64,000 bases of DNA from Candidatus Muiribacteriota bacterium (GTDB taxonomy: Bacteria > Muiribacteriota > Muiribacteriia > Muiribacteriales > Muiribacteriaceae), in the NCBI GenBank assembly GCA_051747805.1, contig JBNJGP010000001.1, positions 5,281 to 69,280 of the forward strand, written 5' to 3'. Each line of letters starts with the position of its first letter. Positions within the stretch are counted from its first letter, which is position 1. Shown one piece after another: positions 10,699 through 48,826 of this stretch. The notes beneath the pieces were generated by a model, which saw nothing but the letters and a program-made list of their open reading frames with translations, ran no database searches and was not told the origin of the DNA. A program made the translations under genes and the position numbers.

Positions 10699-12411
10699 AT
10701 GATTAGAAAAACTAAAATTTTCCTTTTGTTTTTACTTGTTTTTTCATTTACTTTTTTTGCATATGAGTATGATCAGGGAGTTACTGTTGAAGGAAATGAC
10801 GTTTATTTTAGATTCTGGGCGCCAGGCAAACAGACCGTATCTGTTGTTGGTGATTTTAATGACTGGGACAAAGAAGCCAACCTTTTAGAACTTGATGGTA
10901 ATGGATATTGGAAAACTCATATTCAGCTTTCAAATGGTCAATATAGATATCAATACCTGATTAATGGTGAAAAGTATATTGGTGATCCATATGCTCGTGA
11001 GGTTGACTGGGACTTTCATGGTCCTAATGCTGTTTTAAGAGTTGGAGAACCTGAATTTGAATGGACTAATGATGATTTTCACATGGCTAATCAGAACGAT
11101 TTAATAATATATGAAATGCATATAGGTGATTTTTCTCCGGAAGGTACATTTAACGGTGCCAGGGAAAGAATACCATATCTTGCAGAGCTTGGAATTAATG
11201 CTGTTAAAATAATGCCAATTAAAGAATTTCCAGGAGATATTTCATGGGGATACAATCCGGCATATTATTTTGCGCCTGAAAACGCTTATGGTACACCTAA
11301 TGAATTAAAAGCTTTGATAAATGAACTTCATAATAACGGTATAGGAGTAATTCTTGATAATGTATTTAATCACTGTTCACATGACCACCCTTTTAATCAT
11401 CTTTACAATTATCATTCAAATCCATACTTTAATAATGTTGGTAATGAATGGGGAATGCCTAACTTTGATGTCTGGGCAGATGCGACAAAAAGACATGCCC
11501 GCGATGTTGTCCATTACTGGGTGAGAGAGTTTAGAATTGACGGCTTCAGATATGATTATACAAGTGGTATTGGATATGATGGCACAGATGGTATGAGTTT
11601 TATTTCCTGGGAGGCAAGAATGGCTGGTAATGCCATGGGTAAATATATTTATCAAATTGCAGAAAATCTCCCAATGAACCCGCATATGACACATACAACT
11701 GAAATAGATGCTCAGTGGAATGATATTTTTCATCATCAGTTAAAGGCAAATCTTCGTGAGGGAAAGTATAAAGATGACTTTTACTTTGGAAATCTTAAAA
11801 GAACTATGCAGGGAATTGATTATGAACAGCTTGGTTATAATGATCACACTCAGGTAATTAATTTTACAGAAAATCATGATGAAGAGCGCGTAATATATGA
11901 GGCTATGACTAATCCTCATATTGATTATCATAAAGCTGTTAGAAAGGCAAAACTAGGCGCAGTTGCTCTATTTACTTCAGCCGGGGTGCCTATGATTTAT
12001 CATGGTCAGGAGTTTGGTATGGATAGTGCTAGAACACTTGATCCGAATAAGATTGATTGGGATAAGTTAAACGAAAGTTATCCCGGCAGTGAATTATATT
12101 CTCATTTTAGGGCACTTATAAATTTAAGGAAAAATCATATGGCTTTAAGACAGAATAATATTGAAGAGGTTTACAGATATAATAATGAAAACGTCTTAAT
12201 TTACAAAAGATGGGATAATCATGGTGATATAATAATAGTTGCTCTGAATTTCTCAGATCAGGATCAATGGGTTGATATACCTGTACCTCATGATGGAACA
12301 TGGCATGAATATTTATTTGATTATAAAGCAAACGCTTCTTCTGGAAAAATTGCCGATGAGCAAATACCGCGTTCTGGGGCTAAAATATTCAGCTTGAAAA
12401 AAACATGGTAG
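10699..12411 (+). CDS. Secreted GH13 alpha-amylase-family glycoside hydrolase with N-terminal CBM48/E-set domain
   Basis: Signal peptide. VYFRFWAPGKQTVSVVGDFNDWD (CBM48 as in branching/debranching enzymes). GH13 regions DGFRYD, ENHDE, VLDNVFNH. RBS GGGGGA. Confidence 0.8.
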   Translation: MIRKTKIFLLFLLVFSFTFFAYEYDQGVTVEGNDVYFRFWAPGKQTVSVVGDFNDWDKEANLLELDGNGYWKTHIQLSNGQYRYQYLINGEKYIGDPYAREVDWDFHGPNAVLRVGEPEFEWTNDDFHMANQNDLIIYEMHIGDFSPEGTFNGARERIPYLAELGINAVKIMPIKEFPGDISWGYNPAYYFAPENAYGTPNELKALINELHNNGIGVILDNVFNHCSHDHPFNHLYNYHSNPYFNNVGNEWGMPNFDVWADATKRHARDVVHYWVREFRIDGFRYDYTSGIGYDGTDGMSFISWEARMAGNAMGKYIYQIAENLPMNPHMTHTTEIDAQWNDIFHHQLKANLREGKYKDDFYFGNLKRTMQGIDYEQLGYNDHTQVINFTENHDEERVIYEAMTNPHIDYHKAVRKAKLGAVALFTSAGVPMIYHGQEFGMDSARTLDPNKIDWDKLNESYPGSELYSHFRALINLRKNHMALRQNNIEEVYRYNNENVLIYKRWDNHGDIIIVALNFSDQDQWVDIPVPHDGTWHEYLFDYKANASSGKIADEQIPRSGAKIFSLKKTW

Positions 12412-12467: not shown

Positions 12468-13277
12468 TTGTTAAAAAATAAAAAAGTTTTAGTTGTTGAC
12501 GATGAGAAAGATATTTTAAATATTATTGAGTTTTTCTTAAAAAAGCATGGTGCAAACGTGTTGAAGGCGCCTGATGCTTTTTCCGGTCTTGAATATATTT
12601 ATGATTCAGAAAATAAAATTGATATAGTTCTTCTTGATATTATGCTTCCAATACTTGATGGGTTTCAGGTGGCAAAAATTCTTAAAATGCAGAGGGATTA
12701 TAATAAACTGCCTATAATAATGCTTTCGGCCCTTGGGGAAAGTGAAAATATTAAAAAAGGGTTTCAGGTTGGTGCCGATGAATATATTGTCAAACCAGCT
12801 TCTGAAGAATTTATTGTAGATACAATTAAGAATGTTTTGAAAAAAAATGAAAAGCTTATAAACTCAGGAAGAATGTACAACATAAAATTCGAGCTTAAAA
12901 GTGATTTTTCATATATTAAAGAAATCAATGATATGGCCAAATGGATTTTCTCAAATACAGTTGCTCAGGAACAGATGGTGTCGGATTTGATTTATTCTTT
13001 GAATGAAATGTGTGCAAATGCTATTGAGCATGGAAATCGCAAACAGGTGGAAAAAAAGGTTTTTGTCGAATGTGATGTTTTTAAAAATAAAATTATTATT
13101 TCAATAAAAGATGAAGGAAAGGGATTTGATCCTGTTGATACATTAGATCGGCTTGAAAACGCCGATATGTTCAGGATGCGCGGTCGTGGAATGTTGATAA
13201 CCAGAAGTTTAATGGATGAAATTGAGTACAAGGAAAATGGAAAAAAAGTCGTAATGGTTAAAAAGTTTAATTCATAA
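12468..13277 (+). CDS. Response-regulator receiver fused to RsbW/SpoIIAB-like GHKL serine-kinase (anti-sigma factor-like) domain
   Basis: TTG start. REC: VLVVDDEKDIL...VLLDIMLPILDG...YIVKP. C-terminal HATPase_c_2: EMCANAIEHGNR (N-box), KDEGKGFD, GRGMLITRSLMDE (G-box). Confidence 0.75.
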   Translation: MLKNKKVLVVDDEKDILNIIEFFLKKHGANVLKAPDAFSGLEYIYDSENKIDIVLLDIMLPILDGFQVAKILKMQRDYNKLPIIMLSALGESENIKKGFQVGADEYIVKPASEEFIVDTIKNVLKKNEKLINSGRMYNIKFELKSDFSYIKEINDMAKWIFSNTVAQEQMVSDLIYSLNEMCANAIEHGNRKQVEKKVFVECDVFKNKIIISIKDEGKGFDPVDTLDRLENADMFRMRGRGMLITRSLMDEIEYKENGKKVVMVKKFNS

Positions 13278-14726: not shown

Positions 14727-16115
14727 TTAAAGTGATTCTTTTAATGATTTTAGTTTTGTTGTTTCTGGAAGATTTTTTGTAAGGTCGTCAAATATTGATG
14801 AGAAAAATTCAATTTTACCCTGTTTTTGATAAATATCATGAAGTTTTATTATATATGCCTCTTTTTCAAGAGGGGTTTTAGACAGGCTAATTAGTTTCTC
14901 AACATAAAACAGGGTTTTATTTAAATCTTTATTTTTATAAAAGTTAAAACCCATATTTAAAGTTTCAATATCATTTAAGGCAAAAACTCTTTCAAATTGA
15001 AGAGCTTTTTTAACGTCTGTTTCTTTATAAAGAGAAAGTAATGTTTCATTAATTTTATTAGAGTTAAGATAAAGCAGTTTTTTTCCTATTTTAACTGCAG
15101 TATCTAATTCCCCGCTTTTTTTTAAACCAGTTATAAGTTGTATATATTCATCTATATTATCTGCAGAATATTCACTCATTTCAAAAAATGAAGAGGCGGC
15201 CCCGGTAAAATTTTTTTCTCTTAAATTAGATTTGAACTCAAAATAGTTTTTAATAATTTCAGAGTTTATTTTACTGTAATCTATTTTGTCCTGTTTTGTT
15301 TCTTCATTTTTTAAAAAAGAAAAAACTCTGCCTTTTTTATCATTAGTTATATTATTATAAGCGAAAATATCTTTCTGTATGTTATGAAAATGAAAGTTAG
15401 ATAAAAAAATAATTGTGAGTAATATAAAAATTGAAATGATAGATATAAAAGTATATTTCTGGTTTTTTTCGATTTTTTTTATAGTTTTCAGTAAAAAATA
15501 TTTATCAGAATTTTTATTTTCAGTTTTTTGAACAGAATCAAATTCTGAAGCAACAGGGCTATCTATAAGTTCTTCAATATTTTTATGGGAATTAATAATA
15601 TTTTTAACACTTTCATAAGCGCTTTCTTTTATCTGCTGGTCATCGGAGTATAAAAACACATTAAAATCATTTGATATAATGTTGTTAATGATAAGGTAAT
15701 AAGAATTCCAGGCGTTAATTTTTATTAACTGATTACCGCTTTCGGTTAGAGGTTTTATTAAATTTAATATATCAGGATTTGAACATTTTCTGATAGATTT
15801 TAAGGTGTTCAGCTTAATATCATTATCCCGATGATATAATAATTTTTTAAGAGAATCTTTAATTTTGACAAAAGGAAGCTCGTTAATCAGGGTTATAATA
15901 AAGTTTCTAATTTCTGTGTTAAAGAGACTGAAATTTTTTAACAGATTATTTAAAGCACTGTAGTCTTCAAGAATTCTAATATATTCAAGAAACTTAATTT
16001 TATCCTGATTTGTAATATTTTCATTCTGTAAAAATTCTACAGCATTATTTTTATTTATAAAAACGTTTTTCCCCTTTTTATAAAGGAGTTTGTCGTTTAA
16101 ATATTTTTCAATCAT
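14727..16115 (-). CDS. Membrane protein: cytoplasmic HEAT/PBS-like repeats, single TM, periplasmic TPR-like helical domain
   Basis: Repeats around LKKLLYHRDNDIKLNTLKSIRKCSNPDILNLIK. TM segment YTFISIISIFILLTIIFLSNF. C-terminal half is helical-repeat-like. Start overlaps the upstream small ORF (ATGA). Confidence 0.5.
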   Translation of the reverse strand: MIEKYLNDKLLYKKGKNVFINKNNAVEFLQNENITNQDKIKFLEYIRILEDYSALNNLLKNFSLFNTEIRNFIITLINELPFVKIKDSLKKLLYHRDNDIKLNTLKSIRKCSNPDILNLIKPLTESGNQLIKINAWNSYYLIINNIISNDFNVFLYSDDQQIKESAYESVKNIINSHKNIEELIDSPVASEFDSVQKTENKNSDKYFLLKTIKKIEKNQKYTFISIISIFILLTIIFLSNFHFHNIQKDIFAYNNITNDKKGRVFSFLKNEETKQDKIDYSKINSEIIKNYFEFKSNLREKNFTGAASSFFEMSEYSADNIDEYIQLITGLKKSGELDTAVKIGKKLLYLNSNKINETLLSLYKETDVKKALQFERVFALNDIETLNMGFNFYKNKDLNKTLFYVEKLISLSKTPLEKEAYIIKLHDIYQKQGKIEFFSSIFDDLTKNLPETTKLKSLKESL

Positions 16116-16300
16116 TTTTTCTTTTTATCAGATTTTTTTTTAGGTTGATTATTGTTTTTCATTTCTTCTCTTAATTCTTCAAGAACTTTTAGATTATATT
16201 TAACCTCGTTTTTATTTATGATGTTCATATCGTTCATTTTTTTAAAAATATTGTCAAGATTTTCGGCCAGTTCATAGTTTATAAATTCTTTGTAATCCAT
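16112..16300 (-). CDS. Small (62 aa) protein with Lys-rich C-terminal tail, translationally coupled to the downstream membrane protein
   Basis: MDYKEFINYELAENLDNIFKK...KKKSDKKKK. 4-nt ATGA overlap with the next gene. Divergent from the REC-STAS gene. Confidence 0.4.
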   Translation of the reverse strand: MDYKEFINYELAENLDNIFKKMNDMNIINKNEVKYNLKVLEELREEMKNNNQPKKKSDKKKK

Positions 16301-16415
16301 ATTAAAGCTCCTTCCTGTAATTTTTTTGATTTTGTATTTTTGTTTAATCTAACATAAACTTGAAATTAAATCAATTATACGATACTCTTAAAAAAAAATT
16401 CAAGGTATTTCAAGT

Positions 16416-17786
16416 ATGATATTAAAATTAGTAGATGAATTAAAAGAAGAAGATGTTTTAGCCAAGGAAGTAACTCAGCGTGATTCAATTTTATATAAGT
16501 CTGGTAAAGTAATTTCTGAGGACGTTATAAAAAAAATAAAATCACTTGGGATTGGGTTCGTTTATATTGAAGGAAAACCCGGGAAAGATGAGTTAATAAG
16601 ACAGTATAAAATTGAGTTAGAAAATTCACTGCAGACTTCTATTTCCGATGATGAGAAAATCACTTTTTTAATTAAAGAGAAAGTTTCAGCAGAGGATATT
16701 TTTTCTTTTTATGAAAAAATTAATGATATTAATGTAAAAAAAAATTATATTGATTATTGTTTTAAGGATTTTTCAGACAATATATTTAATTTCTTTTTAA
16801 AAAAAATACGGCATGGAATTGAACCTGAAATTGTCTTATATATACTGGATTATCTGGAAAAAAACATAAAGAATATTAATGCTGAAAGTATTATCACTCT
16901 TTATAAAAATTCTAATGCTGAAGTTGTTGAAAAGGTTAAAAATATTCTAAAAAACAATTATTCATTAAGACAGCTTTATGATTTAAAAAAAAGACTTGAG
17001 CTTAAAAACGAGAAGTACGATTTTTTTGACAAAGATGTAAACTTTAACCTTATGCCTCATAAATCTTTCTGGGATATTAGAATTATGGTAGTTTCAAAAA
17101 ATACTGTTGAGCATAATATATTAAAGAGCTATCTTGAAAACCTTGAAATGAACGTAAAGTATTGCGAACCAGATAAAGCCTATGATTTAATTTCCAGTTT
17201 TGATCCTTACATTATCTTTTTTGATTTTGACAGAATTAAAAATCCTTTGAATAAATTTCTATCTGTTTCAAATGAGTTTTATAAAAAGATTTTTTTTATC
17301 ATCAGTTCGAGTGCAGATATCAAACTTTTAAAAAAAACTATGAGGGCCGGGGCAGATTATTTTTTAAAAAAGCCATACTCGCTTCCAAAAATTCAGACTT
17401 ATCTTTCAAAGGCTGTAAAAAATGGCAAGCTGATAGAGCAGCTGGATTTATCTAATAATTTGCTTAAAGTTGATATTAGATATTTTGGTTATAAAATCAA
17501 GAAATTTGACTTTTATGGTGAGTTATCTGCTATGACAACAGATGAAATTAATGAACCTGTTTTAAATAATATTCAAATTGATAAATTTTATTTTTTTGAT
17601 ATGCAAAACTTAGACAGTATTGATATGTCGGGAGTAAGATTTCTTTTAAAAGTAAAAGATGTTGTTAAACAGAAAACAGCCGAGCTGTATCTGCTGAACT
17701 GTTCAGATAAAATTCTTGAACAAATGGGAAATTACAGTAATCATGTTAATATTGTAGAATCCTGGGAAAAGGCAATATGGGTTTAA
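16416..17786 (+). CDS. Multidomain signalling protein: N-terminal helical region, receiver-like domain, C-terminal STAS (anti-sigma-factor-antagonist) domain
   Basis: REC-like: IRIMVVSKNTVEH...YIIFFDFD...YFLKKP. STAS: FFDMQNLDSIDMSGVRFLLKVKD...LYLLNCSDKILEQMG (SpoIIAA-like DxSxxxxDSSG region, here DMSG). Confidence 0.65.
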   Translation: MILKLVDELKEEDVLAKEVTQRDSILYKSGKVISEDVIKKIKSLGIGFVYIEGKPGKDELIRQYKIELENSLQTSISDDEKITFLIKEKVSAEDIFSFYEKINDINVKKNYIDYCFKDFSDNIFNFFLKKIRHGIEPEIVLYILDYLEKNIKNINAESIITLYKNSNAEVVEKVKNILKNNYSLRQLYDLKKRLELKNEKYDFFDKDVNFNLMPHKSFWDIRIMVVSKNTVEHNILKSYLENLEMNVKYCEPDKAYDLISSFDPYIIFFDFDRIKNPLNKFLSVSNEFYKKIFFIISSSADIKLLKKTMRAGADYFLKKPYSLPKIQTYLSKAVKNGKLIEQLDLSNNLLKVDIRYFGYKIKKFDFYGELSAMTTDEINEPVLNNIQIDKFYFFDMQNLDSIDMSGVRFLLKVKDVVKQKTAELYLLNCSDKILEQMGNYSNHVNIVESWEKAIWV

Positions 17787-18286
17787 TCCGGAATTTTTTA
17801 TTTAATTCTGATAAAGAGGGCTTAAAAAGAAGAAAGTCTGAAAAAATAATTAACAGACATAATAATAAAATATTAAAAAGAAATTTTAATTTTAATGCCG
17901 AAGATATCCTGATATTAATGCCGCACTGTGTTCAGTATAAACTTTGTAAAATACGTATTACTTTTAATCCTGAAAATTGTAATCACTGTGGACAATGTGA
18001 TGTTGGAAAACTGGTAAATTATTGTAAAAATAATAATCTTAAACTTGCAATTGCAACAGGCGGTACACTTGCAAGACGTATTATCAGAGAAATAAAACCT
18101 TCCGCAGTTGTTGCGGTTGCATGTCATCGCGATCTCTTATCCGGACTGAAAGAAATAAAAAAAATACCTGTTATTGGAATCTTAAATCAGATTGGAGAAG
18201 ATGGTCCCTGTGTTTCAACAGGATTTGATTTGAAAGAAATAAAAAAGGTTGTTAATTTCTTTCAGGGTTTTGACAAAAAAAATTAA
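17777..18286 (+). CDS. Cys-rich conserved hypothetical protein (DUF116-like)
   Basis: CVQYKLCKIRITFNPENCNHCGQCDVGKL...IATGGTLARRI. Overlaps the upstream gene by 10 nt. The family assignment comes from memory of the motif pattern only. Confidence 0.4.
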   Translation: MGLIRNFLFNSDKEGLKRRKSEKIINRHNNKILKRNFNFNAEDILILMPHCVQYKLCKIRITFNPENCNHCGQCDVGKLVNYCKNNNLKLAIATGGTLARRIIREIKPSAVVAVACHRDLLSGLKEIKKIPVIGILNQIGEDGPCVSTGFDLKEIKKVVNFFQGFDKKN

Positions 18287-18314
18287 AAAATATATCATTT
18301 CTTCGAGGTCAATA

Positions 18315-19283
18315 ATGAAAAAGAAAAAAGACGGAAGTATATTTACTGCTATTTTATATATTATTACATTTGTGGTTCTGGTAAGAGGCATGTTTGTCGG
18401 AACTATTTATGTTATTGAGGATTTTTTTAACGAGGGGCAGGTTCGAGTTCCGGATTTTGTAGGAATGTCTCTTAATGATGCTATGGAACTGGCCCCCAGA
18501 TATAAACTGCGTCTTGAAGTTAAGGGTGAAGCCCATGATGAGCATCTTGAAAAAAATTATATTATTAAACAGGATCCTATTAGTAATTTTTCTGTAAAAA
18601 AAGGGCGCACAATTGAGTTTATAATAAGCAAAGGGAAAAAAGAAAGTATAACTCCCAATCTCAGGGGGATTTCTGTCAGAGAAGCAGAAAGAGTAATTCT
18701 TCAGAATAACTTTTCTATTGGACGTAAAAGCTACGTTTATTCTGATGAACCAGAGGGGGTTATTGTTTCTCAACAGCCTCTGGCTGGCATAAATTATAGA
18801 GAGGGGCAGTTTATAAGTATGCTTGTTTCCAAAGGTGATAAAACTGAGTATGTAATTCTTCCCGAATTTATCGGGGGGAATTATAATAATGTCAAAGATA
18901 CAATTAGAATGATGGGGCTTGAAGTTGGAAACATAAAATACGATTTTGCAGATGAAAAAGAACCCGGCGAAATAATTGATCAACAGCCAGCTTCTGGAAC
19001 CAGACTTGAAAAAGGGGCAGAAATAAACTTGAGAGTGAACCGGAATCGAACCACCAGCCGACAGGAAACCAAGAGAAAAACGGTGAATTTTGAATATGAA
19101 ATTCCAGACGGAAGAGGAGAAAAAGAGCTTAAAGTTATATTGATTGATGACCTCGGCATCAGAGAGGTTCACAGAAGCACATACTCTCCGGAAGCAAGAG
19201 CTTCTTTTACTTTGCATGGCAGCGGAAGAATGAAAGCTTTAATTTATATAGACAATTTAAAAGTCGATGAGAGAGAATATTGA
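18315..19283 (+). CDS. Membrane-anchored PASTA-domain protein (N-terminal TM plus three PASTA repeats)
   Basis: ATG at 18315 (MKKKKDGS) followed by TM FTAILYIITFVVLV. Three repeats of the pattern VPDFVGMS..A...L / ITPNLRGIS..EA / ILPEFIGGNY..V, each ending in xSKG/RVN. Also IIDQQPASG. Confidence 0.75.
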   Translation: MKKKKDGSIFTAILYIITFVVLVRGMFVGTIYVIEDFFNEGQVRVPDFVGMSLNDAMELAPRYKLRLEVKGEAHDEHLEKNYIIKQDPISNFSVKKGRTIEFIISKGKKESITPNLRGISVREAERVILQNNFSIGRKSYVYSDEPEGVIVSQQPLAGINYREGQFISMLVSKGDKTEYVILPEFIGGNYNNVKDTIRMMGLEVGNIKYDFADEKEPGEIIDQQPASGTRLEKGAEINLRVNRNRTTSRQETKRKTVNFEYEIPDGRGEKELKVILIDDLGIREVHRSTYSPEARASFTLHGSGRMKALIYIDNLKVDEREY

Positions 19284-20323
19284 AAATAATCGGACTAGTA
19301 TTAAAACAAAAATATCAGATATTACAGAGAATTGGAGAAAATGAAAGATTTTATACTTTCAGAGGAATTAATATAAAAAATGAATCTCCAGTATTTATCA
19401 AGGTTGTAAAGCAGTCACTTCTTAAAGATAAGAAAAAAATTAAATTTTTCACAGAAGAAGTAAAATCCCTTGCAAAAATAAAACATGAAAACGTAGTAAA
19501 AGTATATGATGTTGATTTTAAAAACGGTATTTTATATGTGGTTACTGAATATATTGAGGGAAAAAGTCTTTATCAGTATATAAGCCAGAAGAAAAAATTT
19601 GATTTCTGGCAGGTTATTCAGATTGTAAATCAGCTTGCCTCTGTTTTGAAATATGCCTTTGATAAGGGAGTTAAATACAGAACTGTTAAACATTCAAATA
19701 TAATTATTACAGATGATATGAAGGTTAAAATTTTATCTTTTAACGTTCCCAGGTCAATTTTATCTCCGCTTCCTGTTAAAATAAAAGAAAACGAGGGTAT
19801 TGACCCGGATATTTTTTTTCTGGGAGTTGTTTTATATGAACTTTTCACACTTAAGTTTCCTCTCAGGGATAAGGATTTACCTGTAACAGATATTTCTATG
19901 CTGGATGAAAATCTACTTGATACAAGGTGGAATATAACATTTGCAGATATTGAGTCTCCCGAAAAAAAAGAAGGAATTGAAAAAGTGATTTATCATTCAG
20001 TTACCCGTAATATACTTGATAGATATAAAAGTATTGAGGAATTTTTAGATGATTTAAAACAATATATAGAAAAAAAAGATAGAAAAGAAAAAACAATGAA
20101 AACTGCAAGTGATGTTACAAATGAACTCGGTGTTAATGAATATGTTTTTAATAAGAGATTTAATGGAAAAAATAAAAATTATTCTAAAAAAACAAAAGAG
20201 GATAAAATATTCAATATTCCAGAGGAAGAACCGGGAGTATTAAGAAAGCAGATAATATTTTTAGTTTCTGCCTTCTCGGTAATTCTTGCGTTAATTTATT
20301 TTATTTACACGCTTCTGTTTTAA
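19280..20323 (+). CDS. Ser/Thr protein kinase-like pseudokinase with C-terminal TM anchor
   Basis: Hanks fold is recognisable (beta3 Lys in VFIKVV, helix-C Glu in EEVKSLAKIKHENVV, APE-region DIFFLGVVLYELFTLKFPL). Catalytic motifs are degenerate: Gly loop GENERF, HRD replaced by YRT (VKHSN retained), DFG replaced by SFN. C-terminal TM IIFLVSAFSVILALIYFIY. 4-nt overlap with the PASTA gene. Confidence 0.7.
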   Translation: MKIIGLVLKQKYQILQRIGENERFYTFRGINIKNESPVFIKVVKQSLLKDKKKIKFFTEEVKSLAKIKHENVVKVYDVDFKNGILYVVTEYIEGKSLYQYISQKKKFDFWQVIQIVNQLASVLKYAFDKGVKYRTVKHSNIIITDDMKVKILSFNVPRSILSPLPVKIKENEGIDPDIFFLGVVLYELFTLKFPLRDKDLPVTDISMLDENLLDTRWNITFADIESPEKKEGIEKVIYHSVTRNILDRYKSIEEFLDDLKQYIEKKDRKEKTMKTASDVTNELGVNEYVFNKRFNGKNKNYSKKTKEDKIFNIPEEEPGVLRKQIIFLVSAFSVILALIYFIYTLLF

Positions 20324-20334
20324 GGGAGATTATT

Positions 20335-20973
20335 ATGTTAGTAGCACCATCAATATTATCTTCAGATTTTAATATACTTGGTGAAGAGGTTAATAATGTA
20401 AAAGAAGCTGGTGCCGACTGGATTCACGTTGATGTGATGGACGGGCATTATGTTCCTAATATTACAATTGGTCCAGTAGTAATTAAAAATTTGAAAAAAA
20501 TATCAGAAAATCTTATTCTGGATTGTCATTTAATGATAACCAATCCTGATAAATATATAGAATCTTTTGTTGAGGCCGGAGCCGATATTATAACTGTACA
20601 TTCAGAAACCTGCCCTCACCTTAATAAAACTCTGAATTATATAAAAGAACTCGGGATAAAGGCCGGAGTAACATACAATCCTGCCACTTCCATGAATAAT
20701 TTAAAATATATAAAAGATATTGTTGATGTTGTGCTTATAATGTCGGTTAATCCAGGTTTTTCAGGACAGAAATTTATACCATCATCATTAGAAAAAATTA
20801 AAGAGGTTAGACAAATCTGCCCTCCTCATGTAAAAATACAGGTTGACGGGGGAATTAATAATAAAAATATTGCTGATATAAAAAAAGCCGGTGCAGATGT
20901 TGTGGTTGCCGGGTCTTATATTTTTGGTTCAGATAATTACAGAGAAAAAATAGAGAGTTTAAAAAGAGGATAG
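20335..20973 (+). CDS. rpe: Ribulose-phosphate 3-epimerase
   Basis: MLVAPSILSSDFNILGEEV...HVDVMDGHYVPNITIGP...VDGG are Rpe hallmarks. RBS AAGGGAG. Confidence 0.9.
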   Translation: MLVAPSILSSDFNILGEEVNNVKEAGADWIHVDVMDGHYVPNITIGPVVIKNLKKISENLILDCHLMITNPDKYIESFVEAGADIITVHSETCPHLNKTLNYIKELGIKAGVTYNPATSMNNLKYIKDIVDVVLIMSVNPGFSGQKFIPSSLEKIKEVRQICPPHVKIQVDGGINNKNIADIKKAGADVVVAGSYIFGSDNYREKIESLKRG

Positions 20974-20977
20974 TAAA

Positions 20978-21958
20978 ATGGCAGAATTAAGGAAGGATCC
21001 AGTTTCACAAAGATGGATTATTATATCTGACAAGGAGTTAAATCCTGAAGATTATCTTTATAACGAGGCTAAGAATTCCAACAACACAGAAAATTGTCCT
21101 TTCTGCGATAAAAATTCACATATGATTGAAAAGGAGATTTTAAGAACATCATATAATAATCGATGGGCTGCAAGAATTGTAAATAATAAATTTCCTGCCC
21201 TGATTTCTGAGGTAGAGCTTGAAAAAGAGGCGGACGGTGTTTATGATAAAATGAGTGGTTACGGCTATCATGAGGTTATAATTGACAGTTATGAACATTT
21301 TGTCCCGTTTCACAAGACAAGTCCCGAAAAGATAGAAAAAGTTCTTGAGGCCATGGTAAAAAGGTACAGAGAATTAAAAAAAGATAAGAATTTAAAATAT
21401 GTACTTTTTTTTAAAAATTACGGAGCTTCTGCGGGGGCTTCACTTTCCCATTCACATGCACAGCTTGTTGCTACGCCTGTTGTTCCAAAAATCGTAATGA
21501 ACGAGCTTCTTTTTTCAAAAAAATATTTTAATTATAAAGAAAGATGTTTATTCTGCGATTTAATTAATCAGGAAAAAAAAGATAAAGAGAGATTAATAAC
21601 TTTTAATCAGGATTTTTATGCGTTTGTTCCCTATGCTCCAAGATTTCCTTTTGAAACATGGATTTTACCTGAACTTCATAATTCCAGCTTTGGAAATATA
21701 AAAAATTGTGAATTGAAAAATTTAGCTGTTATAATTAAAGAATGTATTAACAGATTAGAAAAAGTTTTTAAAAACCTTCCTTTTAATTTTGTAATACATA
21801 CAGCTCCTTTTGAAAATAATTGTGGGGATTACTATCACTGGCATATTGAGATTATGCCCCGGCTGACAAAGGTGGCCGGTTTTGAATGGGGCTCGGGGTT
21901 TTATGTAAATGAAACAAGCCCTGAAAAAGCTGCCGGGATTTTAAGAGAGGCATTTTAG
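20978..21958 (+). CDS. GalT-like (HIT superfamily) hexose-1-phosphate nucleotidyltransferase, paralog 1
   Basis: Zn-site CPFCDKNSH. HIT-type HSHAQ histidine motif (SLSHSHAQLV). C-terminal HWHIEIMPRLTKVAGFEWGSGFYVN, conserved with paralog 2. Confidence 0.75.
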   Translation: MAELRKDPVSQRWIIISDKELNPEDYLYNEAKNSNNTENCPFCDKNSHMIEKEILRTSYNNRWAARIVNNKFPALISEVELEKEADGVYDKMSGYGYHEVIIDSYEHFVPFHKTSPEKIEKVLEAMVKRYRELKKDKNLKYVLFFKNYGASAGASLSHSHAQLVATPVVPKIVMNELLFSKKYFNYKERCLFCDLINQEKKDKERLITFNQDFYAFVPYAPRFPFETWILPELHNSSFGNIKNCELKNLAVIIKECINRLEKVFKNLPFNFVIHTAPFENNCGDYYHWHIEIMPRLTKVAGFEWGSGFYVNETSPEKAAGILREAF

Positions 21959-21975
21959 GAATAACTGGAGGTCTT

Positions 21976-23409
21976 ATGAATATTACCCATATTTGTTCAG
22001 AGTTAAATCCTTTTATAAAAACTGGTGGACTGGCCGATGTTACGGGGTCACTGCCAAAAGCTCAGGCTAAGTCTAAAAATGAAATAAACATTATTGTACC
22101 ACTTTATAAAGATATAATAGAAAATTATTCTCTGGATTACTATGCTGACTTTCCAATGGAAACGCCCCTGGGGCTTAAAACAGTTATTGTTAAAAAAACT
22201 AAAATTAAAAGAAAGTTGACAGTTTATTTTATAGGTGAACACTCCTATTTTTATAGAGATAAAATCTATGGTGATTATGAAGATAATCCGCAGCGTTTTG
22301 CATTTTTTTCAAAGGCGGCACTTAACTTTCTGGAAAAATATAATAATATTCCAGATGTTGTTCACTGTCATGACTGGCAGACCGGACTTGTATCTCTTTA
22401 TGCCCGGGGGAATAATAAATTTAAAAACACGGTTTTTGGTTATACTATTCATAATATAGCATTTCAGGGCTTATTTGATTTTACTGATTTATACTCTCTT
22501 GAGCTGAACTCCTATTATTTTACACCCGATAAGCTTGAATTCTTTGGAAAAGGGAGTTTTTTAAAAGCTGGTATTATTTATTCAGATTTTGTAAACACAG
22601 TAAGTCCAACTTATAGAGACGAAACCTTTACCCCAGAATATGGTTTTGGTCTTCAGGGGCTTCTTGAATGGAAGCGTAAGGATTATTATGGTGTTATAAA
22701 TGGAATAGATAAGGATGAATGGAATCCTCTCAAAGATAATAAAATATTTAATAACTACTCATATTTAAAAATTGCCGAAAAAGAACCTAATAAAAAAGAA
22801 CTTTTAAAAAAGGTAAATCTTCCCTTTAAAAAGGACAGGGCCCTATTTGTTTCAATAACTAGACTGGCGGATCAGAAAGGGATAGACCTTATTATTAATT
22901 CTGCCTCAAACATCGTGAAAAAAGGTCATTATCTCATAATTCTTGGAAGTGGGGACACTTTTTATGAAGAGCTTCTAAAAGAGTTTGAAAAAAAATTCCC
23001 TCAGAATATAAGGGTATTTCTTAGATATGATTTTGAACTTGCGCATCAGCTTTATGCTGGCGGTGATTTTTTTCTTATGCCCTCAAAATTTGAGCCCTGT
23101 GGTTTAAGTCAGCTAATATCAATGAGATATGGAAACATTCCTGTTGTAAGAAAAACAGGAGGGCTTGCTGATACTGTAGATGATTGGAGCGAAAAAGAAA
23201 AAAAGGCGACGGGATTTGTTTTCAGAAACTTTGACTCTGATTCTTTTAATTATACGATAAACAGGGCGCTTGATGTTTTTAAAAAAGAAAAAGATTTTAA
23301 AAGTTTAATTAAAAATTGTATGAAGCAGAATTTTTCATGGGATGAAACAGCCAAAACTTATAAGAAACTGTATGAAAAATATACAAAAAAAAATCCGGAG
23401 AAATATTAA
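21976..23409 (+). CDS. glgA: Glycogen/starch synthase (GT5, NDP-glucose dependent)
   Basis: N-terminal KTGGLADV motif, HCHDWQTGL, C-terminal GGLADTV. RBS GGAGG. Confidence 0.9.
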   Translation: MNITHICSELNPFIKTGGLADVTGSLPKAQAKSKNEINIIVPLYKDIIENYSLDYYADFPMETPLGLKTVIVKKTKIKRKLTVYFIGEHSYFYRDKIYGDYEDNPQRFAFFSKAALNFLEKYNNIPDVVHCHDWQTGLVSLYARGNNKFKNTVFGYTIHNIAFQGLFDFTDLYSLELNSYYFTPDKLEFFGKGSFLKAGIIYSDFVNTVSPTYRDETFTPEYGFGLQGLLEWKRKDYYGVINGIDKDEWNPLKDNKIFNNYSYLKIAEKEPNKKELLKKVNLPFKKDRALFVSITRLADQKGIDLIINSASNIVKKGHYLIILGSGDTFYEELLKEFEKKFPQNIRVFLRYDFELAHQLYAGGDFFLMPSKFEPCGLSQLISMRYGNIPVVRKTGGLADTVDDWSEKEKKATGFVFRNFDSDSFNYTINRALDVFKKEKDFKSLIKNCMKQNFSWDETAKTYKKLYEKYTKKNPEKY

Positions 23410-23411
23410 CA

Positions 23412-24422
23412 ATGAGAGATTACAGAAAAGACCCAATTACACGACGCTGGGTAATAATATCTTCTGATAGAAGCAAGAGACCAAGAGATTTTGGTCATGT
23501 AACAGATATTACTGATGACAAAAACTGCCCTTTCTGCGAAGGAAACGAAGATATGACTCCTCCTGAAATTTTTGCACTCCGGGAAAATGGCGAAGAAAAC
23601 GGCCCAGGGTGGAAGGCAAGAGTAATTCCTGACAAATATTCCATTCTTGAAAATAGAGGAGATGTTAAAAAAAAGGGCCATGGTATATATGATAGCATGA
23701 GTGCCACAGGATTTCATGAACTTATAATAGAAACGCCTAATCATATGGGAAGTCTTGCAAATTTAAGTTTTGATGAAATAAAAACCTATTTAAAGGTGTT
23801 AAAAACAAGAATGGGGGAACTTAAAAACGATTATAGAATACAGTATATACTTGCCGTTAAAAATTATGGATCTGAGGCAGGGGCCAAGTTTAAACATTCA
23901 CATTCACATTCTCATATTGTTGGCCTGCCTATTGTTCCAAAAAGAGTTAAAGAAGAGATTGACGGAGCAAAAGAATATTACAGCTTCCGGGAAAGATGTG
24001 TATTCTGTGATATTGCCGCCCAGGAACTTGCTGAAAACGAAAGAATAATATTAAATAATGAGGATTTTATATCATTATGTACATATGCGGCCCGGTTTCC
24101 ATATGAAACACATATTTATCCTAAAAAACATATTTCATCCTTTGAGGATACGCCTGAGGAAATGTTTGATAATCTGGCCCGTATTTTAAAAAAAACTATT
24201 TTATCTTTATGTAAGGTTATTGATACATTAGCCTATAATATAGTTATTCATACTAAACCAGTTAACCAGGTTGTGCCTGTTTTATATCACTGGCATATTG
24301 AAATAATGCCTAGAGTAACAAAAGTTGCAGGGTTTGAATGGGGTTCAGGTTTTTATATTAATTCTGTTCTTCCTGAAGATGCTGCAAAGTTAATGAAAGA
24401 AAAAATTAATGAGGGGGTTTAA
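23412..24422 (+). CDS. GalT-like (HIT superfamily) hexose-1-phosphate nucleotidyltransferase, paralog 2
   Basis: CPFCEGNEDM, FKHSHSHSHIVGLP, HWHIEIMPRVTKVAGFEWGSGFYIN. Same architecture as 20978..21958. Confidence 0.75.
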   Translation: MRDYRKDPITRRWVIISSDRSKRPRDFGHVTDITDDKNCPFCEGNEDMTPPEIFALRENGEENGPGWKARVIPDKYSILENRGDVKKKGHGIYDSMSATGFHELIIETPNHMGSLANLSFDEIKTYLKVLKTRMGELKNDYRIQYILAVKNYGSEAGAKFKHSHSHSHIVGLPIVPKRVKEEIDGAKEYYSFRERCVFCDIAAQELAENERIILNNEDFISLCTYAARFPYETHIYPKKHISSFEDTPEEMFDNLARILKKTILSLCKVIDTLAYNIVIHTKPVNQVVPVLYHWHIEIMPRVTKVAGFEWGSGFYINSVLPEDAAKLMKEKINEGV

Positions 24423-25835
24423 ATGAAATTTTATAATGATGGATGGTATGGTAAAATTTCAGATGATTTTATTTATTCTAATATTAAAACCCTGGCCAAA
24501 GCTATTGCTAAATACATAATTTCTCATGATCTTGCTAAAAAAAAGGTGATAATTGGTTATGATAGCCGTTTCTTATCGTATGAGCACGCTCAGCTTGTAG
24601 CAGAGGTGCTAATGGGTAATAAACTTGACTGCTGTATTTCCGATAGAGATGTTCCTTCTGTTTTTACTGCGGCAACTTTGAAAAGTTATAAAGGGGCCTC
24701 TGCTGTTCATATTACCGGGCAGAATCAGAAGTATTTTAACAATGGGCTGCTTTTTTTCCCCGAATATGCCGGTCCTCCTTTCAGCCATATTTCAATGGAA
24801 ATTGAAAGAAATATCAGATTGATTAAAGACCTTGATGAAGAAATCGAAATAAAAGGTTTTCAAAAGGGAATTGCCGTAAACTCTCTTCAGGCAATTGATT
24901 TTTACTCAGAATATGCAAAATGTGTTAACAGAATAATTGATTTAAAGAAATTTAAGGATAGTGATTTAAAGATTGTAGTTGATTATATGAATGGCAGTAT
25001 GAGGCATTTTTTAAATAAATTAGTACCAAGAGGGGTTGAATGGATAGAATTAAATCATACATTTAATCCTTATTTTAATGGAATAAAGCCTGACCCTGTT
25101 TCAGGTAAGCTGGAATTTCTTGTAGAAAACATTAAAAATACTGAGGCTGATTTTGGTGTGGCTTTTGATTCTGACGGTGGAAATATATGTTTTATTGATT
25201 CAAATGGACAAAAAATCCATAGGGATATTCTCCTTGGAATTGTTCTTGAATATATTATTAAAAACAAAACTAAAAATGGAATTGTGGTTAAAACAAATTC
25301 AACTACCTCATTAGTGGATGAAGTTTGTCAGAAAAATGGAGTTGAAATAGAAGAAACATATTCTGGATTCAGGCATATTGTTGAAAGATTAATTAAAAAC
25401 AAGGTGATTCTCGGAGCTGATAATTCTGGTGGTATAACAAGTTCTGATCATGTTCCCGTTAAAGATTCAGTTCTTTTTCTTCTTTATATAATTGAAATAA
25501 TGAGTCTGAAGAAGAAATCCCTGACTGAACTGGTTGAGGAATTCAATAGCGAGTATGGACAATTTTATTCAAAATGTTTTGAAATAAAACATAATTCAGA
25601 AGAGGAAAAGCTTAGAATAATTAGTAAATTAAAAAAATTCAGTGATTCTTTCAGAGAAGAAGATATAAAAGATATTTATCAAACAGATGGTTTAAAAATG
25701 ATATTTAAAGATAAAAGCTGGTTTTACATTAGAATTCACTCTGCGGCATTAAAATCTGAGGTTATTATTGAAAGTCAGGATAAAAATATTACAGAAAAAC
25801 TTCAGAATAAAATAAATAAAATCTTAAAAGATTAA
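24423..25835 (+). CDS. Alpha-D-phosphohexomutase superfamily protein (PGM/PMM-like), divergent active-site loops
   Basis: Domain II metal loop AFDSDGGNICFID (cf. DGDGDR). Domain III ADNSGGITSSDHVPVKD (cf. GEESFGTGSDHIREKDG). The catalytic phosphoserine loop (T/SASHNP) is not recognisable; the closest is GASAVHITGQN. Confidence 0.6.
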   Translation: MKFYNDGWYGKISDDFIYSNIKTLAKAIAKYIISHDLAKKKVIIGYDSRFLSYEHAQLVAEVLMGNKLDCCISDRDVPSVFTAATLKSYKGASAVHITGQNQKYFNNGLLFFPEYAGPPFSHISMEIERNIRLIKDLDEEIEIKGFQKGIAVNSLQAIDFYSEYAKCVNRIIDLKKFKDSDLKIVVDYMNGSMRHFLNKLVPRGVEWIELNHTFNPYFNGIKPDPVSGKLEFLVENIKNTEADFGVAFDSDGGNICFIDSNGQKIHRDILLGIVLEYIIKNKTKNGIVVKTNSTTSLVDEVCQKNGVEIEETYSGFRHIVERLIKNKVILGADNSGGITSSDHVPVKDSVLFLLYIIEIMSLKKKSLTELVEEFNSEYGQFYSKCFEIKHNSEEEKLRIISKLKKFSDSFREEDIKDIYQTDGLKMIFKDKSWFYIRIHSAALKSEVIIESQDKNITEKLQNKINKILKD

Positions 25836-25846
25836 GGGGATTTTTT

Positions 25847-26389
25847 ATGCATATCAGGAAAAATTATTTTGTTGATAAGGGTTTTCAGACTGAAATTATA
25901 TTTGCTCTGCTTTTTTTAACTTTTTTTATTATTTTCATAACTTTTTTTAATCTGTATTTTTTTGTAGAGTATTTTACTTTAAACGTTCTTGAACCTGAAG
26001 AGTATAAGCAGTTTACACTTCTTTTATCAAAAGCCTGGACGCTTTTGAGTGATAAAATATTTTTTTTGCTTTTTATTGACTTTTTGATAATTGTGTTTGT
26101 TGGATTATTTCTATCTCATCAGATAGCAGGACCTGGTTTTAAATTAAAAAAATCCATAAATAAAATTGCAGATGGCAACTTAAACTTTAAAGTAAAGCTG
26201 AGGCAGGGAGATAAGTTCGTATCAATGGCTGAAAGTTTAAATTATTTAATTGAAAAATATCAGAACAGGTTTAAATCATTAAAATTTTATACTGCAAAAC
26301 TTAAAGACTCAATTATTGAGAAAAAGGACAAAGAGGCCCTGGAAAATCTTGGGGAAATTGAAAAAAATATGGATGAAATAAATTTTTAA
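25847..26389 (+). CDS. Small membrane protein with two TM helices and a HAMP-like domain, no output domain
   Basis: TM1 IIFALLFLTFFIIFITFF and TM2 FFLLFIDFLIIVFVGLFL, followed by the HAMP-like sequence LSHQIAGPGFKLKKSINKIADGNLNFKV. Ends at 180 aa. RBS AAGGGGA. Confidence 0.45.
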   Translation: MHIRKNYFVDKGFQTEIIFALLFLTFFIIFITFFNLYFFVEYFTLNVLEPEEYKQFTLLLSKAWTLLSDKIFFLLFIDFLIIVFVGLFLSHQIAGPGFKLKKSINKIADGNLNFKVKLRQGDKFVSMAESLNYLIEKYQNRFKSLKFYTAKLKDSIIEKKDKEALENLGEIEKNMDEINF

Positions 26390-26391
26390 TA

Positions 26392-26985
26392 ATGATTTTA
26401 GGTATTTGTGGAAAAATTGGCAGTGGAAAAACATTGTTGTCTGAATTTTTTAAAAATAATCAAAACAGTTATATAATTAACTGCGACAAACTGGCCTCAG
26501 AGTTAATTAACGATAAACAGGAAATTCTTGAATTAATTTCAAAAAATTTCGGCTCCAAACTGATTATAAATAATCAGCTGAATAAAAAAATGATGAGAAA
26601 AATTGTCTTCAATGATAAAAAAAGTCTTTATAAACTTAATCAGATAGTTCATCCCTTTCTTTTTAATGAAGTGAAAAATATTTTAAATATAGAAGAGCTT
26701 AAATCTGAATACAGTTATATAGTTGTAGAGGCTGCTGTTTTATATGAAGCTTCTTTATATAAGCTTGTTGATAAAATTATATGGGTGAGTGCAAAGCTGC
26801 ATAATATACTTCAGAGAGTAAGTTTAAGGGATAAAGATAAAAGAAAAAATATTGAAAATATATACAAAATTCAAAAATCATATAATGAAGTGCAACCAGA
26901 GCCTGATATAGTTATAGAAAATAATAAAACAGTCAATGAATTTAAAAAAAAAGCAGGGAGTCTTGTTGCCTCCCTTAATAAATAA
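26392..26985 (+). CDS. coaE: Dephospho-CoA kinase
   Basis: P-loop ILGICGKIGSGKT at the N-terminus, ~197 aa, CoaE-like layout (HP motif in IVHPFL). Confidence 0.75.
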   Translation: MILGICGKIGSGKTLLSEFFKNNQNSYIINCDKLASELINDKQEILELISKNFGSKLIINNQLNKKMMRKIVFNDKKSLYKLNQIVHPFLFNEVKNILNIEELKSEYSYIVVEAAVLYEASLYKLVDKIIWVSAKLHNILQRVSLRDKDKRKNIENIYKIQKSYNEVQPEPDIVIENNKTVNEFKKKAGSLVASLNK

Positions 26986-27116
26986 CTTGAGTTTAGCAAA
27001 AAATAGAAATTTTAACCTGTCAGCAATTCTCAATGAAAATAGAGAAAATCCTTGATTTGATGGGGTCAGGCCGAGCCCAAATTTAAGCCAGCAGAGGTCG
27101 GCCTGACCACTCAAGT
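26986..27116. repeat. Intergenic repeat element copy A (TIR-bearing MITE-like / structured-RNA-like family); internally deleted and inserted relative to copy C
   Basis: Shares its first 29 nt (cttgagtttagcaaaaaatagaaatttta) exactly with the element at 40791. Contains an 11-bp perfect hairpin GGTCAGGCCGA/TCGGCCTGACC. Ends in ACTCAAGT, matching the right TIR of copy C. Fills the whole gap between convergent coaE and the dehydrogenase gene. Confidence 0.6.
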
Positions 27117-27125
27117 TTAAATTTA

Positions 27126-28037
27126 CTATATAAAGTCTTTAATAATTGAAACTATTTCATCACCAACACGCCCCTGTGCTTCTTTTGTCTGTGCTCCAAC
27201 ATGAGGAGAGGCCACAAGAACTTTTTCGTGGTTAACAAGGTCAGAATTATCTGTTGGTTCTTTTTCATAAACATCAATTCCTGCTCCGGCAATTTCATCA
27301 TTATTTAAAGCATTAAGCAGAGATTTTTCACAAACTACACCACCGCGGGCACAGTTAATAAGAAATGAAGTGTTTTTCATTTTTTTAAGCTCATCTTCGG
27401 CAATTACAGGTTCGCCTGTAAAAGGAACGTGAAGTGAGATAAAGTCGGCGTATGATAAAACAGCTTCTTTATCTTTGAAATCAATGTATGAGGGAAGATT
27501 ATCGACTTTGAAAACATCACAGGCAACTACTTTCATACCAACAGCATTAGCAACTTTCGCAAGCTGTTGTCCTATTCGTCCAATTCCTATAATTCCAAGG
27601 GTTTTTCCGGCTAGTTCAAACCCTTTGAATTTTTTCTTTTCCCATTTACCTTCTTTCATTGAAGTGGTTGAATTATAGAGATTTCTTGCAATTGTAAACA
27701 TCATGGCAATTGCTAATTCTGCAACTGCAGCTGAGCTTGCACTTGGAGTATTTGTAACTTTAATTCCTAATTCTCTAGCTCTATCAAGGTCAATATTATC
27801 AAGCCCAACACCACCTCTGATAATAAGTTTCATATTTTGAGCTTTTTCAAGAATTTCTGCTCTCATTTTTGTGGCAGAACGTACAACTGCGATATTATAC
27901 TCTGGTACAACTTCTTTTAACTCATCAGGATTCATACCTGTTTTAACAGTAACATCCAAACCTGAAATGTTTTTTAATGCTTCAAGACATGAATCGGCAA
28001 CCGGATCACAAATTAACGCTTTCATAAAGCCTCCCAT
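27126..28037 (-). CDS. D-isomer-specific 2-hydroxyacid dehydrogenase family (phosphoglycerate dehydrogenase/hydroxypyruvate reductase-like), NAD-binding
   Basis: GIIGIGRIGQQLAKVANAVGMKVVACD (NAD Rossmann). Catalytic region NCARGGVV..E..L and HVGAQTKEA (His/Glu pair). Confidence 0.8.
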   Translation of the reverse strand: MGGFMKALICDPVADSCLEALKNISGLDVTVKTGMNPDELKEVVPEYNIAVVRSATKMRAEILEKAQNMKLIIRGGVGLDNIDLDRARELGIKVTNTPSASSAAVAELAIAMMFTIARNLYNSTTSMKEGKWEKKKFKGFELAGKTLGIIGIGRIGQQLAKVANAVGMKVVACDVFKVDNLPSYIDFKDKEAVLSYADFISLHVPFTGEPVIAEDELKKMKNTSFLINCARGGVVCEKSLLNALNNDEIAGAGIDVYEKEPTDNSDLVNHEKVLVASPHVGAQTKEAQGRVGDEIVSIIKDFI

Positions 28038-30025: not shown

Positions 30026-30097
30026 TTTATATTAAAATTTTTTGGACAGTATAAAAAGATTATGTTAAATTATAAAAAAGTTTCTGGAGGAAATTCA

Positions 30098-46111: not shown

Positions 46112-46493
46112 TGTTTAAAAGCCTTTGCTATTTTTTTAACAGTTTCCTCGTCAGGATTTTCTGGAAGATTTAATTTCTCAAGAGGATTTTCTTTTTTTAT
46201 ATTGATTTTATCATTTTTTCCCTTTTTTTTATTGACTGTAATTTTTTTGTCATTATCTTTTTTTTTAGCCATATAACCCCCAGGTTAGAGATTTCATCAC
46301 TGATAAATCACAGTTTATAAACATCCTTATATATATATCGGTTATTTTGGTTGATTTTCTAAAGTGATTTATTTAGAATTACGTTATTGTTGATTATGAG
46401 CAAATTGACTCAACTCAGATTTATTAAAATTATAATAATTTTTTAAGCTAGACTTGGTTGTTAGAATTAATAATTTTTTTTCAGGGAGCTAAT

Positions 46494-48050: not shown

Positions 48051-48060
48051 AGGAGAAAAT

Positions 48061-48806: not shown

Positions 48807-48826
48807 TAATTTTTAAGAGGTATAAT

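Follow-up and report, generated by a model that had tools for sequence, protein, structure and literature searches.

A putative PASTA sensor and a tail-anchored pseudokinase encoded by paired genes at the prkC position of Candidatus Muiribacteriota and other candidate phyla

A pair of overlapping genes lies upstream of rpe in a 64,000-nt stretch (hereafter the window) of a Candidatus Muiribacteriota metagenome-assembled genome (contig JBNJGP010000001.1, positions 5,281 to 69,280). The first, gene A, encodes a membrane-anchored PASTA sensor subunit and the second, gene B, a tail-anchored pseudokinase of the PknB/PrkC type, a structural description of the pair that we regard as highly probable. 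The two products would correspond to the two halves of a PrkC/PknB-type PASTA receptor, made as separate membrane proteins, and we favor, with moderate confidence, a two-subunit PASTA receptor derived from prkC in which a non-catalytic scaffold serves as the cytoplasmic subunit. Both open reading frames (ORFs) are present in the window, supported by Pfam and NCBIfam profiles, orthologues and AlphaFold2 (AF2) models:

18315..19283, + strand: gene A, PASTA sensor subunit, 322 amino acids (aa) (Pfam PASTA, E=4.9e-34; NCBIfam PknB_PASTA_kin, positions 326-562; 7 orthologues; AF2 model; match to PDB 3py9)
19280..20323, + strand: gene B, tail-anchored PknB/PrkC-type pseudokinase, 347 aa, TTG start (Pfam Pkinase, E=2.2e-25; AF2 model; matches to Stk1 and PknB; 7 orthologues)
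19280..19283, + strand: TTGA, the 4-nt overlap of the gene B start with the TGA stop of gene A (read from the sequence)
20335..20973, + strand: rpe, ribulose-phosphate 3-epimerase (TIGR01163, E=3.6e-91; conserved downstream neighbor)

The first-pass annotation of this DNA, made from its letters, had noted the overlap and the position upstream of rpe, both of which stand; the 12-nt gap that it gave before rpe is an 11-nt spacer, running from the gene B stop at 20323 to the rpe ATG at 20335 and containing a GGGAG.

Gene A, the start of which is placed at the ATG at 18315 in agreement with the N-termini of its orthologues, comprises a short basic N-terminal tail, one transmembrane (TM) helix, three PASTA repeats and a C-terminal β domain:

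18333..18431, + strand: TM helix and FFN juxtamembrane motif, residues 7-39 (AF2 helix; hydropathy; strong conservation in Muiribacteriota)
18438..19040, + strand: three PASTA repeats, residues 42-105, 110-172 and 179-242 (Pfam; AF2 secondary structure; phmmer)
19074..19277, + strand: C-terminal six-strand β domain, residues 254-321 (AF2; 3py9 alignment; kept in all distant PASTA partners)

The protein carries a single hydrophobic segment (~residues 5-35), and the FN motif directly after the TM helix is kept in distant lineages too. The Pfam PASTA profile aligned in three stretches, and the AF2 model (mean predicted local distance difference test score, pLDDT, of 80.6) resolved the TM helix at residues 7-39, three PASTA units and the β domain at 254-321. 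Its best match in the PDB, over 289 columns, was 3py9, the entire 280-residue extracellular region of S. aureus PrkC/Stk1, in which the six-strand β domain of gene A finds its counterpart in the domain that follows the PASTA repeats, while the PASTA domains of PBP-type proteins (PBP2x) were far weaker structural matches than 3py9. At the sequence level, phmmer matches in the PDB were confined to the PASTA regions of Stk1 and PknB, and the best model for gene A was NCBIfam NF033483 (PknB_PASTA_kin), aligned over its C-terminal part (positions 326-562) with 125.3 bits against a cut-off of 450. The topology of gene A is a short cytoplasmic tail (N-in) followed by the TM helix and a PrkC-like ectodomain outside the cytoplasmic membrane. 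An invariant Arg24 within the TM helix was considered as an intramembrane contact and dropped, as it is unconserved outside Muiribacteriota and one other lineage.

The protein encoded by gene B has the fold of a Hanks-type kinase, with the Pfam Pkinase match listed above, and its motifs were read by three routes that agreed, namely a residue alignment to Stk1 (PDB 4eqm), a PknB profile alignment and translation at exact coordinates:

19331..19351, + strand: degenerate Gly-rich loop IGENERF, residues 18-24 (GGGGMST in Stk1)
19400..19402, + strand: retained β3 lysine K41, the VAIK equivalent, in FIKV (alignment and translation)
19676..19699, + strand: catalytic loop YRTVKHSN, residues 133-140 (HRDIKPQN in Stk1, HRDVKPAN in PknB)
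19736..19744, + strand: SFN in the DFG position, residues 153-155, followed by a family-specific VPRS and a shortened activation segment
20231..20317, + strand: C-terminal TM helix, the tail anchor, residues 318-346 (AF2 helix; hydropathy peak 2.64)

Stk1 and StkP were the best PDB sequence matches of gene B, and the kinase domains of Stk1 and PknB its best Foldseek matches. NF033483 was again the best NCBIfam model, with its best stretch at positions 2-156 and 148.5 bits against the 450-bit cut-off. The AF2 model, built from the family alignment, had a mean pLDDT of 80.5, exceeding 90 in most of the N-lobe and core, and ended in a disordered linker (~270-317) and a confident helix at 318-346 (pLDDT ~90). 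The sole hydrophobic segment, residues 319-347, lies at the extreme C-terminus and ends one residue past this helix, and the profile aligns it with the TM segment of canonical PASTA kinases. In its topology, gene B is a cytoplasmic kinase fold tethered to the membrane by its C-terminal TM helix.

The catalytic apparatus of this fold is largely gone. The catalytic Asp of the HRD motif is Thr135, the DFG Asp is Ser153, and the Gly-rich loop reads GENERF where Stk1 has GGGGMS, with one glycine left; the activation segment is ~14 residues shorter than that of Stk1 and has no recognizable P+1/APE region. Retained are K41, the helix-C Glu (E59/E60), R134 of the HRD motif, the loop residues K137 and N140, the helix-F Asp (D177) and the subdomain XI Arg (R248). 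In the orthologue and family alignments, the cleft has no other invariant acidic residue that might replace the lost Asp residues. Since the catalytic base, the metal-binding Asp and the Gly-rich loop are missing, gene B is predicted to be incapable of canonical phosphotransfer. With a kinase fold, substituted triad residues and substitutions that are kept in its orthologues, gene B meets the general definition of a pseudokinase. The NCBI name of a 100%-identical protein, 'serine/threonine-protein kinase', is thus probably misleading, both catalytic Asp residues being invariantly lost; relatives also carry the name 'protein kinase'.

These results agree with the first-pass annotation on several points. 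It had described the first gene as a TM segment with three PASTA repeats, which the Pfam stretches, the single hydrophobic segment and the 3py9 match bear out, and the repeats hold as PASTA on profile search. Its description of the second gene as a Hanks-type kinase fold with a C-terminal TM segment is matched by the Pfam Pkinase hit, the Stk1/PknB matches and the AF2 tail helix. The changes that it listed (HRD to YRT, DFG to SFN, and GENERF in the Gly-rich loop, with the β3 Lys and helix-C Glu kept) were recovered in the alignments to Stk1/PknB and in the translation, including the D-to-T and D-to-S substitutions, and no intact catalytic Asp was found elsewhere in the cleft. It had further proposed that two polypeptides recreate the PrkC topology in reversed gene order, and the AF2 models and hydropathy (an N-in TM-PASTA protein and a tail-anchored kinase fold) support this arrangement.

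The substituted residues are conserved among orthologues. Seven orthologues of gene B (54-100% identity) share all the dead motifs, with E20, N21, R23, F24, Y133, R134, K137, H138, S139, N140, S153, F154 and N155 invariant in all seven, even though the proteins are otherwise only 54-63% identical overall. As the dead motifs are invariant across orthologues of 54-100% identity, they are under purifying selection and do not reflect decay. Gene A likewise has seven full-length orthologues (53-100% identity). Both proteins retain 53-63% identity over their full lengths within Muiribacteriota and are still recognizable, at 25-36% identity and with unbroken frames, in other phyla.

Gene B belongs to a wider family: a profile search that exhaustively covered 1.84 billion representative proteins added 18 clusters at 50% identity to the Muiribacteriota cluster for 19 in all. 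The members are short, single-domain proteins of 321-460 aa, and all 19 clusters have a C-terminal TM segment and lack the HRD Asp, the DFG Asp and the Gly-rich loop. Most clusters have K at the β3 position, three have R and one has H, and many of the wider members show E-[ND]-[ED]-[KR]-[VF]-like patterns in place of the Gly loop. The core of the fold is invariant or nearly so (the K41-E60 pair, R134, D177 and R248), and R134, F154 and P157 are invariant across a 23-sequence family alignment. A second search, with the family alignment, returned 65 clusters at 90% identity and a clear score gap, near-full-length family members scoring at least 308 bits and canonical PASTA kinases no more than 182. 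Of the canonical enzymes examined for context, the nearest (P0233) is encoded in a fhaA-fhaB-PP2C-rodA-pbpA-pknB cluster of actinobacterial type and is uninformative on these lineages. A neighbor-joining tree separated 25 pseudokinases, as a single clade, from 30 active kinases with 100/100 bootstrap support. Family members come from Muiribacteriota, Candidatus Wallbacteria, Candidatus Rifleibacteriota/Riflebacteria and further unnamed lineages, taxon names being known for few clusters only.

The pseudokinase gene is strictly paired with a gene A homologue. A contig scan with clade-specific peptide patterns yielded only three Muiribacteriota loci, the more distant ones being supplied by the exhaustive profile search; at 15/15 loci a homologue of gene A, including the C-terminal β domain, lies upstream of the pseudokinase (local hidden Markov model, HMM, check). 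The locus comparison in relatives that the first-pass annotation had proposed thus gave a PASTA partner at every one of these loci and dead motifs in 19/19 clusters. Five divergent lineages share the 4-nt overlap of start and stop (the window, L004, L008, L010 and L013; L numbers denote related loci). The PASTA and pseudokinase pair is therefore a conserved family across several candidate phyla and not a one-off.

Gene order in the relatives points to the position that prkC holds in Firmicutes, where the operon prpC-prkC-cpgA adjoins rpe (PMC6449344). The most complete cluster, at 2791-9914 of L010, reads priA-def-fmt-rsmB-rlmN-PASTA(399 aa)-pseudokinase(412 aa)-rpe. L009 and L012 are alike, with rsmB-rlmN-PASTA-134-aa ORF-pseudokinase-ispH-rpe in the former and rlmN-PASTA-pseudokinase-rpe, with a 191-nt spacer between the PASTA and pseudokinase genes, in the latter. 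L013, from Wallbacteria, has PASTA-pseudokinase-rpe, and the gene table of L014 gives pseudokinase-rpe. In all, rpe follows the pseudokinase in L001-L004 and L010-L014, and follows ispH in L009. The conserved prkC position named in the first-pass annotation is therefore well supported: the pair occupies the Firmicute prpC-prkC slot in the rlmN-rpe cluster, more clearly in relatives than in the window. In the window itself, def (30062-30625) and fmt (30622-31560) lie on the same strand 10 kb downstream of the pair, rsmB and rlmN were not seen, and the Muiribacteriota locus looks like a rearranged version of the L010-type cluster. The 134-aa ORF of L009 (7566-7970) has no Pfam match and may be an extra subunit or an insertion; the same contig also encodes KdtA- and LpxL-like lipopolysaccharide genes.

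Taking these observations together, we propose that the gene A ectodomain would sense peptidoglycan precursors or fragments, or sites of wall synthesis, by analogy with PrkC, PknB and StkP. The two products may assemble through their TM helices, a membrane association suggested by the invariable pairing and translational coupling of their genes and by the conservation of their TM and juxtamembrane segments. The output would then be a ligand-dependent assembly or localization of the pseudokinase, which would dock cytoplasmic partners and not phosphorylate them. The fold that would serve for docking appears structurally intact and active-like, with the Lys-Glu pair, HRD Arg, helix-F Asp and subdomain XI Arg kept. 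Cell-wall sensing here probably works without phosphorylation by the gene B protein. We can tentatively entertain a broader proposal, possible and on balance doubtful, that a phosphorylation-free two-subunit PASTA receptor long ago took the place of the PrkC/PrpC phosphorylation switch in several candidate phyla (Muiribacteriota, Wallbacteria, Rifleibacteriota and others), with the ligand-binding PASTA protein gating the scaffold via intramembrane contacts and no other Hanks kinase needed.

The pair may have originated by tandem duplication of prkC, copy 1 losing its kinase domain and copy 2 its PASTA region. We favor duplication because it would yield the observed gene order, the two TM helices and the stop/start junction; the match of gene A to the PASTA-kinase model begins at position 326, just upstream of the PASTA part. 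A simple fission of a kinase-TM-PASTA gene was considered and rejected, since both proteins have a TM segment and fission would give the opposite gene order.

Several points weigh against the scaffold receptor. Contact between the gene A and gene B proteins is proposed from sequence features, and as gene B lacks an ectodomain, any such contact must lie within the membrane, where positions shared by Muiribacteriota (Arg24 of gene A, for example) are unconserved in distant lineages. The route of the canonical PknB back-to-back N-lobe dimer, considered as a possible means of output, seems doubtful for gene B: of the PknB contacts, D76 is kept as D77, R10 may correspond to K11, and the equivalent of L33 (position 34) is polar (N/D/T), like the monomerizing L33D/E PknB mutants in the PDB. 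The retained Lys-Glu pair and catalytic-loop Asn make nucleotide binding possible, and no cytoplasmic partner gene adjoins the pair across lineages. The tree is a simple distance tree, in which shared motif loss and long branches may inflate support for the clade. The negatives for Hanks kinases and PP2C phosphatases cover the 64-kb window and the related loci only. Within that scope, the Pfam scan of the 48 window ORFs found no PP2C, FHA or RsgA, consistent with the absence of PrpC and RsgA from the locus that the first-pass annotation had reported; the single faint RsgA_GTPase match in the window is the P-loop of UvrA. A local HMM check of the window detected no kinase-like ORF besides gene B, and PP2C is also absent from the gene tables of the related loci.

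Those same negatives bear on an alternative that we consider unlikely, in which an active Hanks kinase from another part of the genome would have gene B as its substrate or adaptor; phosphorylated in its linker or activation segment, gene B would recruit FHA-type partners as MviN does. The M. tuberculosis MviN pseudokinase, with PknB and FhaA, offers a precedent (PMC12599244). Between the gene B fold and its TM helix lies a low-confidence, poorly conserved linker (~270-317) that contains Ser and Thr, and the HRD Arg, which contacts the phospho-residue in RD kinases, is invariant family-wide. However, the linker Ser/Thr positions are not conserved across lineages, and no kinase, PP2C or FHA gene occurs in the 64-kb window or beside the pair in related loci.

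Still less probable is an enzyme with a non-canonical mechanism, either an atypical kinase or a nucleotide-binding switch acting via the Lys, Glu and Asn. K41, E60 and N140 are retained and under selection, and some eukaryotic proteins once classed as pseudokinases bind ATP or catalyze other reactions (PMC12599244; bioRxiv 10.1101/2025.01.12.632604). Against such an enzyme, both Asp residues and all but one glycine of the Gly loop are gone, the loop instead has the conserved charged residues E20, E22 and R23, no other acidic position of the cleft is invariant, some clusters have R or H in place of the Lys, and the truncated activation segment has no P+1/APE region. That gene A and gene B are independent, or decaying remnants of prkC that left a stand-alone peptidoglycan-binding protein and a relic, is a reading to which we give very little weight. 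The 134-aa ORF of L009 and the 191-nt spacer of L012, which part the two genes, speak for independence, but the full-length conservation with intact frames (53-63% in Muiribacteriota, 25-36% in other phyla), the co-occurrence at 15/15 loci and the start/stop overlap in five lineages oppose both independence and decay.

Upstream of the pair, the window contains two further features of note, a neighboring gene and a promoter-like site:

17777..18286, + strand: DUF116 gene, the upstream neighbor (Pfam DUF116, E=1.2e-41; synteny in L001-L004, Muiribacteriota loci only)
18270..18298, + strand: promoter-like site TTGACA-17-TATCAT (consensus match; 16 nt 5′ of the gene A ATG, overlapping the end of the DUF116 gene)

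The promoter-like site had the top score, 11/12, in a scan of 16000-27200 based on consensus match only. Across four related contigs (L001-L004) the order STAS/receiver-like, DUF116, PASTA, pseudokinase, rpe, GalT-like and glgA is kept. In clostridia, DUF116 presumably lies in the def-fmt-...-prkC cluster. As signaling partners, DUF116 and the STAS/receiver-like protein upstream of the pair were considered and rejected, being syntenic only within Muiribacteriota. Two components of partner-switching type were seen in this region: at 12468-13277, a receiver domain fused to an RsbW-type HATPase_c_2 domain, and at 16416-17786, a gene overlapped at its end by 10 nt of the DUF116 gene, its 456-aa product combining a weak receiver-like region with a STAS domain at the C-terminus. 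Both are probably not core partners, as they are syntenic with the pair only in Muiribacteriota.

Downstream of rpe, GalT/HIT-family paralogues (20978-21958 and 23412-24422) lie on either side of a glycogen synthase gene (21976-23409), a phosphoglucomutase-family gene (24423-25835) follows the second paralogue, and a branching-enzyme-like gene lies at 10699-12411; the order is kept in L001-L004. No glgC was seen, which suggests a GalT-type nucleotide-sugar route to glycogen. A cluster of the Na+-translocating decarboxylase type, with carboxyltransferase, OAD gamma and OAD beta subunits, occupies 46458-49966. Four ORFs had no Pfam match, at a threshold of E<=0.1 for 14727-16115 (− strand, 462 aa) and of E<=1e-5 for 28376-29605 (409 aa), 42511-44265 (584 aa) and 4285-5274 (329 aa). 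For 28376-29605 and 14727-16115, counterparts of similar size and position, likewise without a confident Pfam match, occur in related Muiribacteriota contigs.

In Gram-positive bacteria, PASTA kinases have a central part in regulating cell-wall synthesis, division and β-lactam tolerance, and it is still debated how they pass on the binding of a ligand outside the membrane and for which functions their kinase activity is required. The module described here parts the sensor from the kinase fold and has its catalysis genetically dead, yet it is selected in the same housekeeping operon across several phyla, making it a natural system for the non-catalytic functions of the PASTA receptor class. If the phosphorylation-free receptor proves true, the module would be a natural demonstration of PASTA-based cell-wall signaling without phosphotransfer. 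It also adds a membrane pseudokinase family beyond the seven bacterial families catalogued in 2025. The full-text literature that we consulted contained no description of a split PASTA/pseudokinase module, nor of PASTA domains linked to these candidate phyla, and the family of the pair is apparently undescribed.

The seven bacterial pseudokinase families are ActPs1, ActPs2, ActPs3, GLW, CP1, DYD and DLHK (PMC12599244; bioRxiv 10.1101/2025.01.12.632604). The VAIK Lys is substituted in all of them, though in only part of the members of CP1 and DYD (bioRxiv 10.1101/2025.01.12.632604), and a PASTA partner has been described for none (PMC12599244). By contrast, K41 is invariant in the orthologues of gene B and K prevails in most clusters of its family, which is set apart from the seven by descriptions of motif and architecture only. 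A parallel among them in design is the MviN (MurJ)-linked pseudokinase of M. tuberculosis (ActPs3), likewise a membrane-tethered dead Hanks fold with a shortened activation loop, which is tied to peptidoglycan synthesis and serves as a docking site (PMC12599244). ActPs3 is actinobacterial, fused to the MurJ flippase and without the VAIK Lys, whereas gene B is separate, tail-anchored and PASTA-paired and keeps the Lys; MviN was not in the 60 best PDB sequence matches of gene B.

EssB/YukC of type VIIb secretion resembles gene B as a bitopic protein with a cytoplasmic pseudokinase, degraded catalytic motifs and Gly loop and a reduced activation loop, and EssB works as a structural hub (PMC12599244). 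EssB has its own extracellular domain and is encoded in type VII secretion system operons, whereas gene B ends one residue past its TM helix, has no such secretion genes in the window or related loci, and has the PASTA kinases, not EssB, as its closest sequence relatives. In layout, B. subtilis YabT and M. tuberculosis PknA also combine a kinase fold, a linker and a single TM segment with little or nothing outside, and PknA was among the structural matches of gene B. Unlike gene B, YabT and PknA are active kinases and are not known to have a separate PASTA partner.

The nearest known systems remain the PASTA kinases PrkC, PknB, Stk1 and StkP (NF033483; 'KAPD'), with which the pair shares the kinase fold, the ectodomain of three PASTA repeats and a β domain, the membrane topology and the rlmN-rpe slot; the 'KAPD' PASTA kinases of the 2025 atlas are the fused, active form (bioRxiv 10.1101/2025.01.12.632604). 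The pair differs from PrkC-type PASTA kinases in consisting of two polypeptides with the sensor gene first, in a kinase half without the catalytic Asp, the DFG Asp, the Gly-rich loop and most of the activation segment, in having no adjacent PP2C phosphatase or RsgA/CpgA, and in occurring in candidate phyla, not Firmicutes or Actinobacteria. Judged from its sequence, the pair would thus descend from a PASTA kinase and may work like one, while departing from the class in its catalytic residues, its division over two polypeptides, its score below the curated cut-off and the lack of an adjacent cognate phosphatase.

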